Positions 13,144 to 44,353 of a stretch of 64,000 nt of DNA are shown one piece after another. Numbering within the stretch: the stretch's first letter is position 1; each line of letters opens with the position of its first letter. The notes under the pieces were generated by a model. That model ran no database searches and was not told where the DNA came from. It was given only the letters and a program-made list of their open reading frames with translations. The stretch is from Escherichia phage BF17. Location: the sequence record MW822008.1; one strand, given 5' to 3'. Position numbers and translations under genes: made by a program.

Positions 13144-14133
13144 ATGGCTAAAAAAATTAATGAAGCACAAGTTAAAATCGATATCGCAGGTCTAGAATCT
13201 GAAGATCTAGAAACACTATCTCGTATGCTTGCATTAGCTGGTCAAGCAGAGCGTCAAGCTTCTCCTGTTGCTGCTCCAGTTCCTTCTATGGGGTCTATGA
13301 CCCCTTCTCTACCACCAATCGCTCCACTCGACATGGATTCCATTGGTGCTGGTGCTGAAGAAGAAGTTGGTGGTACAATGGATGGTGCGATTGATGCACC
13401 AGTTGAAGACCCATTGGAAGTAGCTGCTGACTCACTATCTGCTGAAGCTGGTGATTTTGGTGGTGATTCTGAAGAAGTAAGTATGGATGCAGAGTTCGAA
13501 GAGCCTGGTGTTGCAGATGAAGAAGAGTTTTCTTTAGATCTTTCCGGTCAACCTCAACTAGAATCAGTTGAAGAAGAGGAAGAAGAAGAAATCATCGAAG
13601 AAGAATTCGATTTCAGTCGTATGCTATCTCTAGCTGGGCTTCAAGACGAACCAGAAGATGAATATTCAGTAGAAGGTAACCCAGATACTGAAGTTAAAGT
13701 TGAAGAAAACACTTTCCTACCAGACCTAACCATCTCTGAAGATGAAGAACAAGGTGACAGTACTGATTTTGGACCTTACAACACTGAAGCTGATGCCGTT
13801 CGTGACGGTCAAGCTAAAACTAATGGTGTAGAAGGTGACCACTTTGTTGTTATTACCAAGGGTAACAAGTTCTACTGGAGACGTGTCGTTGATGAAGATG
13901 TTGACAATCGTCCTGAACCAGAGTACTATGACAATGACGGTAACGAGAACCGTGTTCACAAATTTGAACCTAAGTTTCCAGGTACTGCTCTAGGTGACAA
14001 CCCACTCAATGTTAATGAGAGTGATGAGTCCGTGGAAGGTAACGAAGAACTAGAAGATGAAAGCGATGAAGAAGTCGAAGACATTTTCGAAAGTCTCCAG
14101 AAGAAATATCAACAATTTCTAGGGGACAAATAA
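13144..14133 (+). CDS. highly acidic protein (D/E-rich)
   Basis: 329 aa with long E/D runs (EEEEEEEIIEEEFDF); AAAGGA RBS. Confidence 0.5.
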   Translation: MAKKINEAQVKIDIAGLESEDLETLSRMLALAGQAERQASPVAAPVPSMGSMTPSLPPIAPLDMDSIGAGAEEEVGGTMDGAIDAPVEDPLEVAADSLSAEAGDFGGDSEEVSMDAEFEEPGVADEEEFSLDLSGQPQLESVEEEEEEEIIEEEFDFSRMLSLAGLQDEPEDEYSVEGNPDTEVKVEENTFLPDLTISEDEEQGDSTDFGPYNTEADAVRDGQAKTNGVEGDHFVVITKGNKFYWRRVVDEDVDNRPEPEYYDNDGNENRVHKFEPKFPGTALGDNPLNVNESDESVEGNEELEDESDEEVEDIFESLQKKYQQFLGDK

Positions 14134-14530: not shown

Positions 14531-14908
14531 ATGATTCCTGAACCACACAACAGTACTGAATTTCAAAACGATGTACTTTTAAAAGTTAGAGAAGTACATG
14601 GATCAGACGCTGAATTAACAGACCGTATGCTTCTGATGTCAATTTTTGAAAATTTCAGAACTGGCGGTGGTTTAAGACTTAGCAAGTTTGGATATACAAT
14701 TTGTAAAGAAAACATTCTTTACGAATTTACAAAAATCCCCTTGCAAAGAGAGTTCAAAAGTTCTATAATCTTTACATCGCTTGATAGGATATGTACTTCA
14801 CCCTACTATGTAGAAGGGCAGTACATATACCTCTCGGACGCAATGATAGTTACAGAGTTAACATTGTGTGGTGATGATTTTAGAATGTTATTTTCGATGC
14901 ACATGTAG
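14531..14908 (+). CDS. hypothetical protein
   Basis: 125-aa ORF with GGGGA RBS. Confidence 0.4.
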   Translation: MIPEPHNSTEFQNDVLLKVREVHGSDAELTDRMLLMSIFENFRTGGGLRLSKFGYTICKENILYEFTKIPLQREFKSSIIFTSLDRICTSPYYVEGQYIYLSDAMIVTELTLCGDDFRMLFSMHM

Positions 14909-14933
14909 CTTCGAAAATAAAGAAAAAAAGATG

Positions 14934-14961
14934 TTGACAACGCCGAATGATGTGTTATAAT
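14934..14961 (+). promoter_or_regulatory. sigma70-type promoter P1 (TTGACA-N16-TGnTATAAT)
   Basis: TTGACA 14934-14939, TATAAT 14956-14961 with TG extended -10. Confidence 0.7.
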
Positions 14962-15025
14962 GACCACCACGAAGCAAGTTTTCAAAATCACAAGATGTGA
15001 GATTGAAAAAGAAATAAAAAAGTTG

Positions 15026-15053
15026 TTGACAAGCCTGAACGATGTGATATAAT
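15026..15053 (+). promoter_or_regulatory. sigma70-type promoter P2, tandem duplicate of P1
   Basis: TTGACA 15026-15031, TATAAT 15048-15053; ~40-bp block GTTGACAA...GATGTG.TATAATGACCAC repeated 92 bp apart. Confidence 0.7.
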
Positions 15054-15115
15054 GACCACATCAAGACGGCAAAGAGAAATGCCTTTTTAAATACATGGAT
15101 GATTCATGAAGTAAC

Positions 15116-15158
15116 AAAGGAACTGATAAGTTAAAAATTCTTTTAACACAGTTCCTTT
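15116..15158 (+). promoter_or_regulatory. long stem-loop in 5' leader of the AAA+ gene
   Basis: AAAGGAACTG ... CAGTTCCTTT 10-bp inverted repeat with nested GTTAAAA/TTTTAAC stem. Confidence 0.45.
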
Positions 15159-15184
15159 ACTTTTGCCCACGGATTGGCTATAAT
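15156..15184 (+). promoter_or_regulatory. possible third promoter (TTTACT-N17-TATAAT)
   Basis: TATAAT 15179-15184 with weak -35 at 15156-15161. Confidence 0.35.
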
Positions 15185-15224
15185 AGAAACCTAAACGATT
15201 TTATCCAACAAAAGGAAAATATAC

Positions 15225-16553
15225 ATGTCTACTCAAAACAACGATATCCTGAACGTAAAACTGACTCCTAAGAAAGCTAAAGAAGCAATGGCACTGGCTG
15301 ACATGATTCAAGATAGCCTGATGATTTGGGGTAGCCCTGGTATCGGTAAATCTGCTATCGCACGTCAATACGCTGATGAGAACTACCCACTGCGTAAAGA
15401 TAACGTGGCAAAAATTGAGTTCATGAAACAACAAATCGAAGCTGATACTGAAAATGCTGATCAACTTCGCCGTGAACTGGCAGCGTTTGAAGCCAAACTA
15501 ATCGACCAAGACACTAACTTTATCGATTTCCGTTTGTCTCAGATTGAACCAAGTGACCTTCGCGGTATTCCAGTTCCAGAGAAAGTGTTCCTTGATATGG
15601 ATGGTAAGCAACTGATTGAATCTGAACTGGCTAGTGCACAAGATTACATCGCTGAAACAGCAGTTGTGTGGGCAGCACCTAAAGTACTGAAACTGTCTCC
15701 AGATTGGAAAGGTGTTATTCTGTTTGACGAAATCAACTCTGCAATGCCGATTGTACAGGCAGCGTCTTATCAGCTAATCCTCGACCGTTGTGTTGGTGAG
15801 ATGAAGCTACCTAAGACTGCACTGATTCTCGCAGCAGGTAACCGTGAAACTGATGGCGGTGTAACGTTCTCTCTAGCTACACCACTGCGTGACCGTATGA
15901 CCCACATCGAAATGATTCCTTATCATCAAGATTGGATTAACGATTATGCGATTGGTAAGCGTTTGAACCCAGCAACTGTAGCGTTCATCAACAACACTGG
16001 TGCTAAACACTTCAACACCCTTAGCCCACAAGATCCTTCTCACTGTGGTGGTACTTCTCCACGTTCATGGGAAGCAGTAGCACGCTACGAAGATCTGAAG
16101 AAAGTTAAGAACATTGATAAAGAAGTGTTCCGTGCGATGATTGCAGGTCGTGTTGGTGAAGGCGTAGCAACTGAATACATCGAGTATGTTGATAACGTAG
16201 CTAAACTACCAGATACCATGTCCATCCTACAGGGTGAGATTAAAGAGATTGATGCTTCGCTTGATATTTCCGCGAACTACTTCATCACTCTGAATCTGGT
16301 TTACAAAATTATCGACCTCTACAATGAGAAGCAAGAACAACGTCTACCAGTGGAAGATTGGGGTAAGCTGTGCAACAACTTCATCACCTTCCTAGACCAT
16401 AACTTCTCTGCAACTCAAGCAGAACTGGCAGTACTGGCGATTCGTACCATCACGCTTCATAAAGTAGCGATTACGATTAAAGATGTACCAGCGTTTAAAG
16501 ACTTCGTTATGAAGTACTCTGACCTAGTACGTAAAGCACGCTCTCTTGGTTAA
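15225..16553 (+). CDS. MoxR-type AAA+ ATPase (AAA_5 / CbbQ-NorQ-CobS-like)
   Basis: Walker A GSPGIGKS, Walker B VILFDEINSA, AAGN and TPLRDRM motifs; single AAA module; AAGGA RBS. Confidence 0.75.
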   Translation: MSTQNNDILNVKLTPKKAKEAMALADMIQDSLMIWGSPGIGKSAIARQYADENYPLRKDNVAKIEFMKQQIEADTENADQLRRELAAFEAKLIDQDTNFIDFRLSQIEPSDLRGIPVPEKVFLDMDGKQLIESELASAQDYIAETAVVWAAPKVLKLSPDWKGVILFDEINSAMPIVQAASYQLILDRCVGEMKLPKTALILAAGNRETDGGVTFSLATPLRDRMTHIEMIPYHQDWINDYAIGKRLNPATVAFINNTGAKHFNTLSPQDPSHCGGTSPRSWEAVARYEDLKKVKNIDKEVFRAMIAGRVGEGVATEYIEYVDNVAKLPDTMSILQGEIKEIDASLDISANYFITLNLVYKIIDLYNEKQEQRLPVEDWGKLCNNFITFLDHNFSATQAELAVLAIRTITLHKVAITIKDVPAFKDFVMKYSDLVRKARSLG

Positions 16554-16575
16554 TAATTAAAAAGAGTGTTGACAA

Positions 16576-16606
16576 GAAGGATACCACATGGTATCCTTCT
16601 TTTATC
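16576..16606 (+). terminator. intrinsic terminator after AAA+ gene
   Basis: Perfect palindrome GAAGGATACCA-CATG-TGGTATCCTTC + TTTT; preceded by TTGACA at 16569. Confidence 0.65.
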
Positions 16607-16628
16607 TTAACTAAACGAGGAAATACAA

Positions 16629-18038
16629 ATGTCAGATAAACGTTTCAGTGATGTTACTCCGGCTCTCCAGAAAGAATGTCAAGATCGTCTGATCTTAGCT
16701 CGCACATCTTTAATGCTAACATTCCCATTCTTTGGTGTACTGGCTTCTCGTCTGCGTCCAGTTGCAAACAATACATGGTGTCGTACTTTGGCAGTAGATG
16801 GTAAGCATTTATTCTACAACGTAGAATTCATCATGGGTATTCAGGACCAATCCAAAAAGACCGCATACGAAGAAGCAATTCGTGAGAAACATCCTGAAGT
16901 AACTGAAGAACAACTTAAAGAAATGACAGAAGGTTTGACTGATGAAAACCTGATTGCAGTTATCTGTCATGAGATTCTTCACTGTGCATATGACCACTTC
17001 TTGCGTCGTGGTATGCGTGACCCGCAGCGTTATAACCGTGCTGCTGACTATGCAATTAACCAGATTCTTGTTCGTGATAAAATTGGTAAAATCCAAAGCC
17101 AATGGCTGTACGATAAAAAGTACGATGGCATGACTGCTGAAGAGATTTATAACATTCTCGAAGAAGAAGATAAGCAGGATCAAGACGGAGAAGGTGAAGG
17201 TAACCCACAGGCTGGTAGTGGTGAGGGCGAAGGTAAATCACGTGGTACTTTTGGCGATATCAAAGATGGTAAAGGCAAAGGTACAACAATTGACCAGCAT
17301 GACGTTCCACAAGAAGGTCAAGAGGGTGGTTCAAGTGAGAAACAAAAACGTGATTATATGGATGATTTCAAAACAGCAATGATGAATGCTGCTCGTGCAG
17401 GTGGTACTCCTGCTGAAATCGCACGTATGATTAACAACTTCAAAGAACCAAAGATCGACTGGCGTTCTAAACTTCACCGCACGCTACGTAGCTGGTTGAA
17501 GTCTGACGCAACTTATCAAAGTCCTAATCGTCGTTCATGGGGTGCTGGTTTTGGTAGTACTGGTTCATTCTACGGGAATCCAATCTTCCCTGGCATGAAA
17601 CCTGATGATGATATTGATATTGCAATTGCACTAGATGCATCCGGTTCTATCTCTGAAGATATGCTCCGTGATTTCATCAGTGAAGTACTGGGTATCACTA
17701 AGCAGTTTAAACAATTTAAAATCCGTATCATGACGTTCGATACTGAAGTTTATACTGTAAAAGATTACAAAACTGGTGAAGAGAGTAAGATTCTTGAATA
17801 TCCAGTGAAAGGTGGTGGTGGTACTGACTTTGAAGCAGTATGGGTTCATATGAAGCATGACAACTATAAGCCAAAACAGCTTATTATGTTTACTGATGGT
17901 GAGCCGTGGCAGTCATGGGGCGATCCTGATTACTGTAAGACACTGTTTGTTATCCACAGTAATCCTAACAAACAAGCACCATTTGGTGAAACTGTACACT
18001 ACGAATATGAAGCTGACAAAAAGCGTCAACGTAGCTAA
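16629..18038 (+). CDS. vWA-domain protein with N-terminal HExxH metallopeptidase-like domain (DUF2201-like), partner of the AAA+ ATPase
   Basis: HEILH motif; MIDAS residues DASGS ... GGGGTDFE ... FTDGEP; GAGGA RBS. Confidence 0.75.
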   Translation: MSDKRFSDVTPALQKECQDRLILARTSLMLTFPFFGVLASRLRPVANNTWCRTLAVDGKHLFYNVEFIMGIQDQSKKTAYEEAIREKHPEVTEEQLKEMTEGLTDENLIAVICHEILHCAYDHFLRRGMRDPQRYNRAADYAINQILVRDKIGKIQSQWLYDKKYDGMTAEEIYNILEEEDKQDQDGEGEGNPQAGSGEGEGKSRGTFGDIKDGKGKGTTIDQHDVPQEGQEGGSSEKQKRDYMDDFKTAMMNAARAGGTPAEIARMINNFKEPKIDWRSKLHRTLRSWLKSDATYQSPNRRSWGAGFGSTGSFYGNPIFPGMKPDDDIDIAIALDASGSISEDMLRDFISEVLGITKQFKQFKIRIMTFDTEVYTVKDYKTGEESKILEYPVKGGGGTDFEAVWVHMKHDNYKPKQLIMFTDGEPWQSWGDPDYCKTLFVIHSNPNKQAPFGETVHYEYEADKKRQRS

Positions 18039-18050
18039 GTACTAAATAAT

Positions 18051-18081
18051 GAGAACGGAAAATTCCGTTCTCTACTTTTTT
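18051..18081 (+). terminator. intrinsic terminator after vWA gene
   Basis: GAGAACGGAA-AA-TTCCGTTCTC hairpin + T6. Confidence 0.75.
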
Positions 18082-18147
18082 CAGCGGGACAGCTTGGAAA
18101 AAGGTGATATAATTATATTTGTAACAACATACATGGAGAGTATTAAA

Positions 18148-18378
18148 ATGGAACAAGAACCAGAAAAAATTCAACTAACACTAATCGACCTAATCAACGC
18201 TGCTAAAATCATGGAAGCTGCTGTGGCTCGTAATTCATTTAAAGTCGAAGAACTTGTTGATGTTGCTCCAGTCGTATCTAAGTTTGTTGAGTTTGCTAAC
18301 TCTGCACTCGAAGATATCAAAGCACAAGAAGAAGCTGAAGCTGCACAAGCTGCTGCTGAACAAAATAAAGGAGAATAA
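18148..18378 (+). CDS. small acidic hypothetical protein
   Basis: Track ORF 18049 overlaps the terminator; ATG at 18148 has GGAGAG RBS. Confidence 0.4.
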   Translation: MEQEPEKIQLTLIDLINAAKIMEAAVARNSFKVEELVDVAPVVSKFVEFANSALEDIKAQEEAEAAQAAAEQNKGE

Positions 18379-19039: not shown

Positions 19040-19633
19040 ATGAATAAAATAGAATTAGATGAAGCAATCAATGGTTTATCTAATGTATGTTTCAGTGGCG
19101 GGGCAGCAGGTGCTGACCGCCTTTTTTCTATCTATGCAAAAGACAATGGATTTGAAGTAATAAATTTTTCATTCAAGGGTCACCAAAGCAGTGTAGATGA
19201 AAATACTATATTAGAAATTCCATCCAATATCCTTTGTGATAGTTCAATATTAAAACAATTAAACATTGCATGTTACTCTTTACGCCGTAAAGTTCCTAAG
19301 CCTGGTTCGTATGTATATAACTTACTTGCAAGGAATAGTTACCAGATACTTAATACTAAAAGAGTATATTGTATTGCAAATATTACATCACCCACGCAAG
19401 TTTCAGGTGGAACTGCATGGGCAGTACAGATGTATATGGATTCAGTTGACAATCCAGAAATATATTGTTATGATATGAACACTCGCTCTGTATTTTATTA
19501 TGATACAGTACTGAAAGAGTTTACTGAAACATTCTCAATACCAGCACCACACGGTAACTGGACTGGGATTGGTTCACGTAATGCTACACAAAAACACATG
19601 GAACACTTTATTACATTTTTCAAGGACGTATAA
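19040..19633 (+). CDS. hypothetical protein, possibly SLOG/DprA-like Rossmann fold
   Basis: N-terminal CFSGGAAGADRLFSIYA resembles the G-rich nucleotide-binding loop of DprA/LOG-type proteins; stop overlaps thyA start (ATGA). Confidence 0.3.
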   Translation: MNKIELDEAINGLSNVCFSGGAAGADRLFSIYAKDNGFEVINFSFKGHQSSVDENTILEIPSNILCDSSILKQLNIACYSLRRKVPKPGSYVYNLLARNSYQILNTKRVYCIANITSPTQVSGGTAWAVQMYMDSVDNPEIYCYDMNTRSVFYYDTVLKEFTETFSIPAPHGNWTGIGSRNATQKHMEHFITFFKDV

Positions 19634-20562
19634 TGAAACAACTACAAGAACTATATCAAAGAATTCTGGATCAAGGTGTCGAAAGCGTTGATCGTACTGG
19701 TGTTGGCACTATCAAGCTAATCGGACAACAAATGCGTTTTGACCTAAAAGAAGGTTTCCCAGCAGTAACTACTAAACGTTTAGCTTGGAAAGCAATGACT
19801 TCAGAATTGTTATGGTTTATTGAAGGTTCTCACGATGAGCGTCGTCTGTGTGAAATTTTACACGGGACACGTGATGTAGAAAAGAAAACAATTTGGACAG
19901 ACAACTACCTTAATCAAGGTGTAAGCCTTGGGTATTCTGATGGTGAGCTTGGCCCAGTTTATGGTAAACAATGGCGTGAATGGGAAGATTATAAATTCAG
20001 TTCCAGTACTGAAGAAATTCAAGAACTAAAAGATAAAGGGTATAAAGTTATTGATTATACTGGTTCACATGGTGTTATTATGCGTCGTGTAACTGACCAG
20101 CTAAAACAAGTTATTGAAGGTATCAATACTGATCCATACGGTCGTCGTCACATTCTAAGTGCATGGAACGTTGGTGAGCTTGATGCTATGACTTTGCCAC
20201 CCTGTCATAGCTTTGTGCAGTTTTGTGTTGTACAGGGTAAACTAAGTTGTATTCTTCATCAACGTAGTGCTGATCTATTCCTTGGTGTGCCATTTAATAT
20301 TAGTAGTTACTCACTACTAACTCATATGATTGCACAAATTACAGGGTTAGATGTTGGTGAATTTATTTGGAATGGTGGCGACTGCCATATCTATCAAAAC
20401 CATATTGAACAAGTAAAAGAGCAACTCCAACGTGAACCACGTACATTACCAGAATTATGGTTAGATCCTACTATTACTGATATTGAAGATTTCACTATGG
20501 ATTCTTTCAAATTAGTTAATTACGATCCAATGCCATCAATCAAAGCACCAATGGCTGTATAA
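19633..20562 (+). CDS. thyA: thymidylate synthase (ThyA-type)
   Basis: ELLWFIEGS, GPVYGKQWR, catalytic PPCHSF, QRSADLFLGVPFNISSY, GDCHIYQNH; Asn retained in PFN so dUMP-type rather than dCMP hydroxymethylase. Confidence 0.9.
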   Translation: MKQLQELYQRILDQGVESVDRTGVGTIKLIGQQMRFDLKEGFPAVTTKRLAWKAMTSELLWFIEGSHDERRLCEILHGTRDVEKKTIWTDNYLNQGVSLGYSDGELGPVYGKQWREWEDYKFSSSTEEIQELKDKGYKVIDYTGSHGVIMRRVTDQLKQVIEGINTDPYGRRHILSAWNVGELDAMTLPPCHSFVQFCVVQGKLSCILHQRSADLFLGVPFNISSYSLLTHMIAQITGLDVGEFIWNGGDCHIYQNHIEQVKEQLQREPRTLPELWLDPTITDIEDFTMDSFKLVNYDPMPSIKAPMAV

Positions 20563-44325: not shown

Positions 44326-44353
44326 TTGACAAACGCAAAGAATGTGATATAAT
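44326..44353 (+). promoter_or_regulatory. sigma70-type promoter (TTGACA-N16-TGnTATAAT) for ClpA-like gene
   Basis: TTGACA 44326-44331, TGTGATATAAT 44343-44353; same architecture as P1/P2. Confidence 0.7.

Follow-up and report, generated by a model that had tools for sequence, protein, structure and literature searches.

The window analysed here, a 64,000-nucleotide stretch of Escherichia phage BF17 (sequence record MW822008.1), carries two neighbouring genes on its + strand, one encoding a MoxR-class AAA+ ATPase (15225-16553) and the other, which starts 75 bp downstream of the ATPase gene, encoding a protein that joins an N-terminal HExxH metallopeptidase-like domain to a von Willebrand factor A (vWA) domain (16629-18038). 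We consider it rather probable that the two products form one machine, an ATPase ring with a vWA adaptor and its tethered peptidase, which are differently dosed and act on a client protein. The family, architecture and partnership of the pair are already known, and at the protein level the finding is a re-discovery. New are the confirmation of the MoxR class by structure and profile where curated hidden Markov models (HMMs) fail, two clade-specific insertions in the ATPase, a promoter duplication restricted to one lineage, and conserved, covarying leader hairpins together with a conserved intergenic hairpin. The phage is a jumbo myovirus of the 121Q/PBECO4/Rak2 type of coliphage; over 14900-18100 its DNA is 99% identical to Escherichia phages WPEC5, EC.P1 and fEgEco12 (350-385 kb), 87% to 121Q/G17 (Asteriusvirus) and 73% to RaK2/K64-1. 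A preliminary description of this DNA, made from the sequence alone, had proposed both open reading frames (ORFs) and their pairing. The ORF coordinates were confirmed, every motif that it quoted was found in the translations, and the pairing of a MoxR-type ATPase with a vWA/HExxH partner is upheld by motifs, fold, profile and homologues. It had also called the function of the pair experimentally unknown, in agreement with our literature searches, which returned no functional study.

The ATPase is a protein of 442 aa and belongs to phrog_1297 (2.9e-105). It contains the motifs GSPGIGKS (aa 36-43), VILFDEINSA (164-173), AAGN (203-206) and TPLRDRM (219-225), which provide Walker A (aa 36-43), Walker B (D168-E169) and sensor 1 (N206), and a sensor-2-like P279-R280 follows. 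Ten residues of these elements (G36, G39, K42, S43, D168, E169, N206, R224, P279 and R280) do not vary among 30 homologues; position and motif resemblance make R224 a putative arginine finger and R280 a putative sensor 2. Homologues of 370-405 aa that are about 32% identical to the query (E ~1e-53) contain PF07728 AAA_5 and PF07726 AAA_3. An AlphaFold2 model of the ATPase (mean predicted local distance difference test score, pLDDT, 85.6) contains a helix-2-insert hairpin (strands E115-124 / E141-150) between beta2 and Walker B, and a pre-sensor-1 hairpin with short strands at 189-190 and 193-194. When this model was compared with the PDB by Foldseek, the 12 best matches were all to chains of NorQ in the NorQ/NorQD structures of 2026 (E 2.4e-7 to 2.9e-6; target-normalised template-modelling score, TM, 0.50-0.62), and CbbQ2 appeared at rank 23. 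A profile of the ATPase family searched against PDB sequences matched the AAA_5 modules of midasin best (6.3e-6). The segment DFRLSQIEPSDLRGIP also appears to resemble the helix-2 region of MoxR proteins. Invariant motifs, transitive homology, modelled fold and profile match together assign the ATPase to the MoxR class. Two insertions set the ATPase of the jumbo-phage clade apart from its shorter relatives: at about aa 53-95, a helical hairpin that follows the Walker A helix, and at about aa 120-145, a stretch that lengthens the helix-2-insert hairpin.

The partner, of 469 aa, consists of an N-terminal DUF2201_N zincin-like domain, an acidic, Gly-rich and disordered insert (about aa 188-236), and a compact C-terminal vWA domain (aa 330-460) with a complete metal-ion-dependent adhesion site (MIDAS: D336, S338, S340, T399 and D423). 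Its motifs are HEILH (114-118), DASGS (336-340), GGGGTDFE (395-402) and FTDGEP (421-426). The preliminary description had put forward an HMM search as a check, and the result was divided: DUF2201_N (PF13203, 2e-36) and DUF2201 ("VWA-like domain", 9.7e-22) were clear in the partner, whereas generic VWA, at 20.8 bits, stayed just under its cutoff of 23.8 and the ATPase gave no match to AAA_5. The vWA domain has the vWA (Rossmann-like) fold, and its fold matches include BchD, NorD and the MIDAS domain of midasin. The HExxH and MIDAS residues, whose absence would have spoken against the original assignment, are all present: H114, E115, H118 and the full MIDAS set are invariant in 27 aligned partner homologues. 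HExxH...DxSGS persists in N4, rV5-like phages, PA5oct, an Aeromonas phage, Phosso and two large metagenomic phages, even where identity falls to 25%, and DxSGS in eight lineages. HExxH with an invariant Glu is the catalytic signature of zincins; D140, D222 and H224, candidate third zinc ligands, are likewise all invariant. The vWA-peptidase family is widely mis-named in current annotation, variously as "HNH endonuclease" (PHROG 1314 and RefSeq, including N4 gp25), "anti-sigma factor", "membrane protein" and "transcriptional regulator HdfR"; no HNH Pfam match was found in the partner.

Comparison with coliphage N4 showed the two genes, at the level of sequence, to be jumbo-phage orthologues of gp24 and gp25. 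Searches with tblastn against the N4 locus recovered the ATPase (9.8e-24) and the vWA protein (2.8e-23) in alignments that cover most of each, with gene order and strand unchanged; the genes are annotated as N4 gp24/gp25-like in Muenster, RaK2 and phAPEC6, and the two families share PHROGs 1297 and 1314. In N4 the two are middle transcripts, and they belong to the 14 core genes of N4-like phages, with function unknown (PMC4193335; PMC2784036). Gene order and HExxH...DxSGS are the same in both phages, pre-late expression is expected in both, and identity is about 25-29%. The jumbo-phage proteins are each about 90 aa longer, the ATPase through its two insertions and the vWA protein through extra N-terminal helices and the acidic linker. 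Furthermore, the N4 pair is transcribed by the phage's own RNA polymerase II, whereas the promoters in the window are of host sigma-70 type, and N4 has no obvious terminator hairpin between gp24 and gp25.

Of 50,697 phage records searched by tblastn, 808 contain the ATPase and 732 the partner, with near-identical host breakdowns. Rak2-type jumbo phages, rV5-like myoviruses and N4-like podoviruses are among the carriers, as are Campylobacter and Aeromonas phages, PA5oct and Bacillus phage G. The two genes stand side by side in N4, the Aeromonas phage, Phosso (a 469 kb Sinorhizobium phage) and two large metagenomic phages, and in a scan of bacterial genomes the ATPase gene lay upstream on the same strand in all 18 loci with flanking sequence; the one isolate locus inspected, in Brucella pecoris, is phage-like. 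In PA5oct (locus L017, 6361-7857) the ATPase gene gp335 and the vWA gene gp340 are separated by inserted sequence, which holds three small ORFs and the homing endonuclease gene gp339. We considered gp339 itself, labelled "homing endonuclease", as the partner there and rejected it, tblastn having identified the partner as gp340 and gp339 as an insertion. The ATPase and its vWA partner thus recur together in every lineage and locus that we examined.

The closest precedent is the "chaperone-cochaperone pair" of MoxR, vWA and metallopeptidase described in group 2.2 jumbo phages by Iyer, Anantharaman, Krishnan, Burroughs and Aravind (2021, Viruses 13:63; PMC7824862). Its domains are the same, a MoxR AAA+ ATPase and a vWA protein with an N-terminal metallopeptidase, with no difference in kind, and the phage group appears to be the same as well, namely T4-related jumbo phages with 121Q and RaK2 cited; its example accessions, ASV44729.1 and ASV44728.2, may come from this genus. 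That account gives no regulatory anatomy and no structural models, and it reaches virion assembly by analogy only. NorQ-NorD and similar pairs (CbbQ-CbbO, RavA-ViaA, CobS-CobT and BchI-BchD) share the MoxR fold with its helix-2 insert and pre-sensor-1 hairpin, and likewise have a MIDAS-bearing vWA partner and adjacent genes. However, NorQ is only 12-14% identical to the phage ATPase, and the phage protein has a large extra C-terminal helical region, with a query-normalised TM of only 0.32-0.39. The phage partner, in contrast to NorD, CbbO, ViaA, CobT and BchD, carries a peptidase domain; the finger element of NorD was not identified in it, and no target-enzyme genes lie near the phage pair, unlike in the NorQ-NorD type. 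Midasin/Rea1, which acts in eukaryotic ribosome biogenesis, follows the same logic of AAA_5 modules and a MIDAS domain of its own, but it is a single giant chain in which six AAA modules are fused, and it has no peptidase, whereas the phage pair is two proteins. FtsH-type proteases offer a functional analogy, for which we claim no homology: both combine an AAA+ ring with an HExxH peptidase, FtsH in a single chain that belongs to the classical AAA clade and has an M41 peptidase, the phage pair on two proteins of different clades linked through a vWA domain.

These comparisons suggest how the pair might work. In NorQD, the concave face of the NorQ hexamer receives one vWA domain, that of NorD, which touches the helix-2-insert loops, and ATP drives remodelling of the adaptor linker (PMC13036017). 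By analogy with NorQ-NorD and other MoxR-vWA pairs, the phage ATPase would assemble into a hexameric ring on which a single vWA subunit docks, and the MIDAS site would hold an acidic residue of the client protein. ATP hydrolysis would then pull or twist the adaptor and so remodel the client, which the tethered peptidase would cut, the net result being an AAA+ protease split into two polypeptides.

Several observations weigh against this scheme. The Pfam scan of the ATPase gave no AAA_5 match and left AAA_3 below threshold (17.9 bits, cutoff 27), with AAA itself at 21.5 bits for a cutoff of 21.2. For the partner, no peptidase was among the listed fold matches, which the vWA domain dominates, and the Pfam hints of a peptidase are weak (PhageMetallopep 0.0076; Peptidase_M48 0.031); we infer its peptidase activity solely from the invariance of HExxH. 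Literature searches on DUF2201 with MoxR, on phage MoxR transcriptomics and on N4 gp24/gp25 found no experiment on any member of the family. Finally, the first of the leader hairpins described below could be the terminator of an upstream operon and not an attenuator. Single-protein searches of PDB sequences returned nothing significant for either protein (best RuvB 0.37 and integrin 0.55), and NCBIfam and PADLOC scans gave nothing meaningful.

We also analysed the control regions of the pair, and compared three intergenic regions across 11 genomes (the Asterius-, Alcyoneus-, Eneladus- and Mimasvirus groups and Munch). Upstream of the ATPase gene, a 55-nt direct repeat on the + strand, with copies 82% identical and 92 bp apart, holds two predicted sigma-70 promoters. 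Copy 1 (14913-14967) contains P1, with its -35 element at 14934-14939 behind an A-rich tract and a TG-extended -10 at 14953-14961; copy 2 (15005-15059) contains P2, with its -35 at 15026-15031 and TG-extended -10 at 15045-15053. Both sites (14934-14961 and 15026-15053) match the consensus at 12 of 12 positions, as expected from the near-identical consensus promoters 92 bp apart of the preliminary description, and the window as a whole holds three such perfect TG-extended promoters against 0.11 expected by chance. The only other one, at 44326-44353, has a ribosome-binding site (RBS) and start codon within about 40 nt and no structured leader.

An extended -10 element precedes the ATPase gene in all 11 genomes, and the sequence just 3' of it (CACATCAAGAC / ATTAAGAC) is kept across genera. 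P1, however, is kept only in G17 (11/12) and JNE01 (12/12) and is absent from Muenster, Munch and the Eneladus/Mimas viruses, so that the tandem arrangement occurs only in the window phage, G17 and JNE01, against a single promoter in Muenster, Munch and the others. Sequence comparison identifies P2 as the orthologue of the single conserved promoter and P1 as its recent copy: the tandem promoter is a recent, lineage-specific duplication and no conserved design feature, and what is conserved is one promoter with its hairpins. A third site that had been proposed (TTTACT-17-TATAAT, 15156-15184, + strand) does exist, with 10 of 12 matches, but it is kept only in G17 and JNE01, and its -10 decays in Muenster, Munch and more distant genomes. 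Because it overlaps the T-tract and hairpin 2 of the leader and is not conserved, it is doubtful and probably no conserved promoter. We also examined the T4 late-promoter motif TATAAATA as a timing marker and set it aside as uninformative, the motif being nearly absent from the window (one site in 64 kb against about 6.5 expected); the late promoters of this T4-related jumbo phage must differ from TATAAATA.

Between the promoters and the ATPase start codon lie two hairpins, both on the + strand. Hairpin 1 (AAAGGAACTG...CAGTTCCTTT, 15116-15164 with the T-rich tract ACTTTTG that follows it) is terminator- or attenuator-like. Its stem-loop (15116-15158) has a predicted dG of -15.4 kcal/mol and a z score of -4.28, with none of 200 shuffled sequences as good; the long 5'-leader stem-loop noted earlier is hence far more stable than its shuffled controls. 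All 11 genomes have it downstream of the promoter, with a T-rich tract after it; in G17 the corresponding site bears a terminator annotation. Its 10-bp stem shows two compensatory changes (G-C to A-T and A-T to C-G) and one coordinated two-sided deletion. Hairpin 2 (GCCCA-CGGA-TTGGC, 15165-15178) has a 5-bp stem and a YGGA loop. Its stem covaries, the outer pair being G-C, C-G, A-T, T-A or G-T and the third pair C-G, A-T or T-A, and its loop is CGGA or TGGA in 10 of the 11 genomes and CGGATT in EJP2. Stem pairs were counted on a hand-anchored and hence less objective alignment, MAFFT having mis-registered the 5' arm of hairpin 1, where loop lengths differ. The order of elements is not absolutely fixed, since in the rearranged leader of EJP2 (locus L009, 912-1229) a strong promoter with 12 of 12 matches sits downstream of hairpin 1.

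Further GGA motifs occur in the leader at ACAUGGAUGA (15096-15104) and in the Shine-Dalgarno sequence (15212-15216), and together with the loop of hairpin 2 they may resemble the sites, with GGA in a loop, to which RNA-binding proteins of the CsrA type bind. It is possible that an inverted repeat acts here as DNA and not as RNA. A small-RNA gene formed by P1/P2 and hairpin 1 was considered and rejected, as nothing beyond the proximity of promoter and terminator pointed to one. A permissive Rfam search of 14800-18300 returned one sub-threshold chance match, on the opposite strand inside the vWA gene.

Each of the two genes is followed by a hairpin on the + strand. The intergenic hairpin (16574-16607; stem-loop 16574-16601) has a 12-bp stem, a tetraloop and a T-tract, with dG about -18 to -19 kcal/mol and z = -6.04, and the hairpin after the vWA gene (18051-18081; stem-loop 18051-18072), which closes the unit, is terminator-like, with a 9-bp stem and a T-run, at z = -5.33; in both cases 0 of 200 shuffles were as good. 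Separate terminators after each gene, as the preliminary description had it, are therefore borne out by a stable hairpin and T-tract 3' of both, and its view of the pair as a discrete unit with promoters and terminators of its own agrees with the promoter and hairpin analysis. A hairpin and T-run separate the genes in all 11 Rak2/121Q-type genomes, and because the stem sequences are unrelated, it is the structure itself that is conserved. The same arrangement was found in four of five unrelated lineages; in three of these a TTGACA-17-TAnnnT promoter follows, which makes the two genes separate transcription units there. In the window, a promoter-like site (TTGACA-17-TATCCT, TG-extended, 16569-16597, + strand) overlaps the intergenic hairpin. 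The hairpin and T-run 3' of the vWA gene are likewise present in 11 of 11 genomes, and the next extended -10 promoter comes after them (at 18086-18113 in the window).

Transcription would, on this sequence evidence, start at the one conserved strong promoter, duplicated in the lineage of the window, through host sigma-70 RNA polymerase; a promoter of this strength and host type would imply that expression begins before the late phase. Transcripts would then cross the conserved attenuator-like leader hairpin, and partial termination between the genes would yield more ATPase than adaptor, as a 6:1 complex would need. The leader and intergenic hairpins thus suggest attenuation and an unequal dosage of the partners. 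Particle mass spectrometry (MS) of phAPEC6 fits unequal abundance, because the ATPase was detected (6 peptides) and the vWA protein was not. In PA5oct, the homologue is located in the "middle" region defined by RNA-seq.

As to the client, we lean, tentatively, towards a role in maturing or processing large assemblies of the phage's own proteins. Iyer et al. (2021) had proposed virion assembly with proteolytic processing, by analogy with Acidianus two-tailed virus (PMC7824862). Consistent with such a role, the ATPase is present in virion preparations of both phAPEC6 and PA5oct by MS; virion-protein genes lie directly upstream of the pair in 121Q/G17 and near the gp24/gp25 homologues of N4-like roseophages; and a 480 kb phage contig carries genes for a ClpP-type protease and a Gp23-like capsid protein 1.3 kb downstream of the pair. 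However, the promoters are of a host early type and the N4 pair are middle genes, and in most lineages the neighbours are genes of nucleotide or DNA metabolism, namely those for dCTP deaminase, ThyA, 5'-3' exonuclease, thymidine kinase, glutaredoxin, ligase and sliding clamp. Furthermore, the virion MS lists also hold ThyA, SSB, topoisomerase and RNase H, so that detection of the ATPase may reflect only its abundance.

The same observations make a pre-replicative role possible, if doubtful: the machine would act early or mid-infection on host or phage proteins of DNA or nucleotide metabolism or of takeover, and not on virion proteins, for example by activating or assembling a replication or deoxynucleotide-synthesis complex, or by cleaving a host factor. 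Host-type consensus promoters and the place of the pair in the "middle" region of PA5oct, where RNase H is nearby, agree with this, as does N4, in which gp24/gp25 are middle genes that precede dCTP deaminase, a thymidylate-synthase-like gene, helicase and DNA polymerase. ThyA lies 1.6 kb downstream in the window and downstream in all Rak2-type relatives; elsewhere the neighbours are 5'-3' exonuclease, thymidine kinase, glutaredoxin and metallophosphatase, and in the Brucella phage-like element DNA ligase and sliding clamp adjoin the pair. Neighbourhood is nevertheless a weak guide in large phages, as temporal classes are scattered in PA5oct and similar genomes, and virion-protein genes are among the neighbours too. 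No specific partner gene is conserved across lineages, and the ATPase was detected in virion preparations. On balance we slightly favour an assembly role over a pre-replicative target.

In counter-defence, the pair would recognise a host immunity protein and degrade or remodel it, which would explain very early and strong expression. The strong early-type promoters are compatible with this, and the pair is not universal among phages, being confined to large virulent ones. Anti-defence genes are typically accessory, patchy and fast-evolving, whereas this pair makes up two of the 14 N4-like core genes, is syntenic in all Rak2-type genera and has invariant active sites. Bacterial conflict systems do use MoxR-vWA cores, so that a phage mimic or antagonist is conceivable (PMC7159879). 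These systems are ternary, with VMAP, iSTAND, FtsH or a beta-propeller as third component (Kaur, Burroughs, Iyer and Aravind, 2020, eLife 9:e52696; PMC7159879), their vWA proteins carry variable C-terminal effectors, and their hosts are multicellular bacteria (PMC7159879). The phage pair shares with them only the MoxR and vWA core. No third component was found beside it, the flanking ORFs having matches only to DprA-like/SLOG and ThyA proteins or to phage families without an assigned function, and no neighbour gene is shared between the lineages inspected. Nor does any variable effector domain follow the vWA domain of the partner, with which the protein terminates (aa 330-460 of 469). The link to NTP-dependent conflict systems that had been raised for this pair therefore fails, the pair being binary, its extra domain N-terminal and conserved, and PADLOC having matched nothing; a counter-defence role is very improbable.

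Insertion of a metal cofactor, as by NorQD, CoxDE, CobST and BchID, with the machine loading a metalloenzyme of phage or host and HExxH binding metal without being a protease, is at least as remote: the closest solved structures to the ATPase are of NorQ, an Fe-insertion chaperone, the vWA domains of BchD and NorD are among the fold matches of the partner, and phrog_249 ("porphyrin biosynthesis", CobS-like) weakly matches the Brucella homologue, but no nor, cox, cob or bch genes occur in any neighbourhood inspected, no metalloenzyme gene is consistently linked across lineages, Pfam groups the N-terminal domain with metallopeptidases and the invariant Glu of HExxH fits a zincin, and the vWA protein is without the long N-terminal and linker regions of NorD and CbbO. 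Both of these last proposals lose ground because the pair belongs to the conserved core and is not accessory, and because no gene for a target metalloenzyme accompanies it.

A more far-reaching version of the protease scheme seems to us unlikely as a whole. It would have a split AAA+ protease of a type not characterised before, of MoxR motor and vWA-tethered zincin, made at the very start of infection and cutting a specific host or phage protein. Hundreds of large virulent phages (N4-like, rV5-like, Rak2-like, PA5oct and phage G) would depend on this cleavage for takeover or replication, with the conserved leader hairpins and an invariant YGGA loop as a dose-setting RNA switch.

Genes of the gp24/gp25 type are among the few common to N4-like podoviruses, rV5-like myoviruses and several jumbo-phage lineages, and for more than 15 years they have figured in core-gene lists with function unknown. 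The role of a MoxR motor coupled to a protease, once known, would fill a real gap in phage biology, and proteolysis, if true, would be a new output for the MoxR-vWA mechanism just solved structurally for NorQD. The window confirms the family and adds regulatory detail that could guide experiments: a leader whose structure is conserved, and partners dosed separately and probably unequally. What the motor-protease does in more than 700 phage genomes is a worthwhile question, and the window makes its answer no more tractable.

Some features of the surrounding DNA were observed in addition. Two genes upstream of the ATPase gene, 13144-14133 encodes a low-complexity protein of 329 aa, very rich in Asp and Glu, whose counterpart in 121Q is annotated as structural. 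Directly after the promoter at 18086-18113, the RBS of the next gene lies in a hairpin loop (ATACA-TGGAG-(A/T)GTAT, 18129-18143) that is near-unchanged in 11 of 11 genomes. Further downstream, 19040-19633 encodes a DprA-like/SLOG-type protein (phrog_768, 4e-27, with a weak YAcAr Pfam match); this ORF overlaps the thymidylate synthase ORF (19633-20562) by one base and is syntenic across the Rak2-type group.

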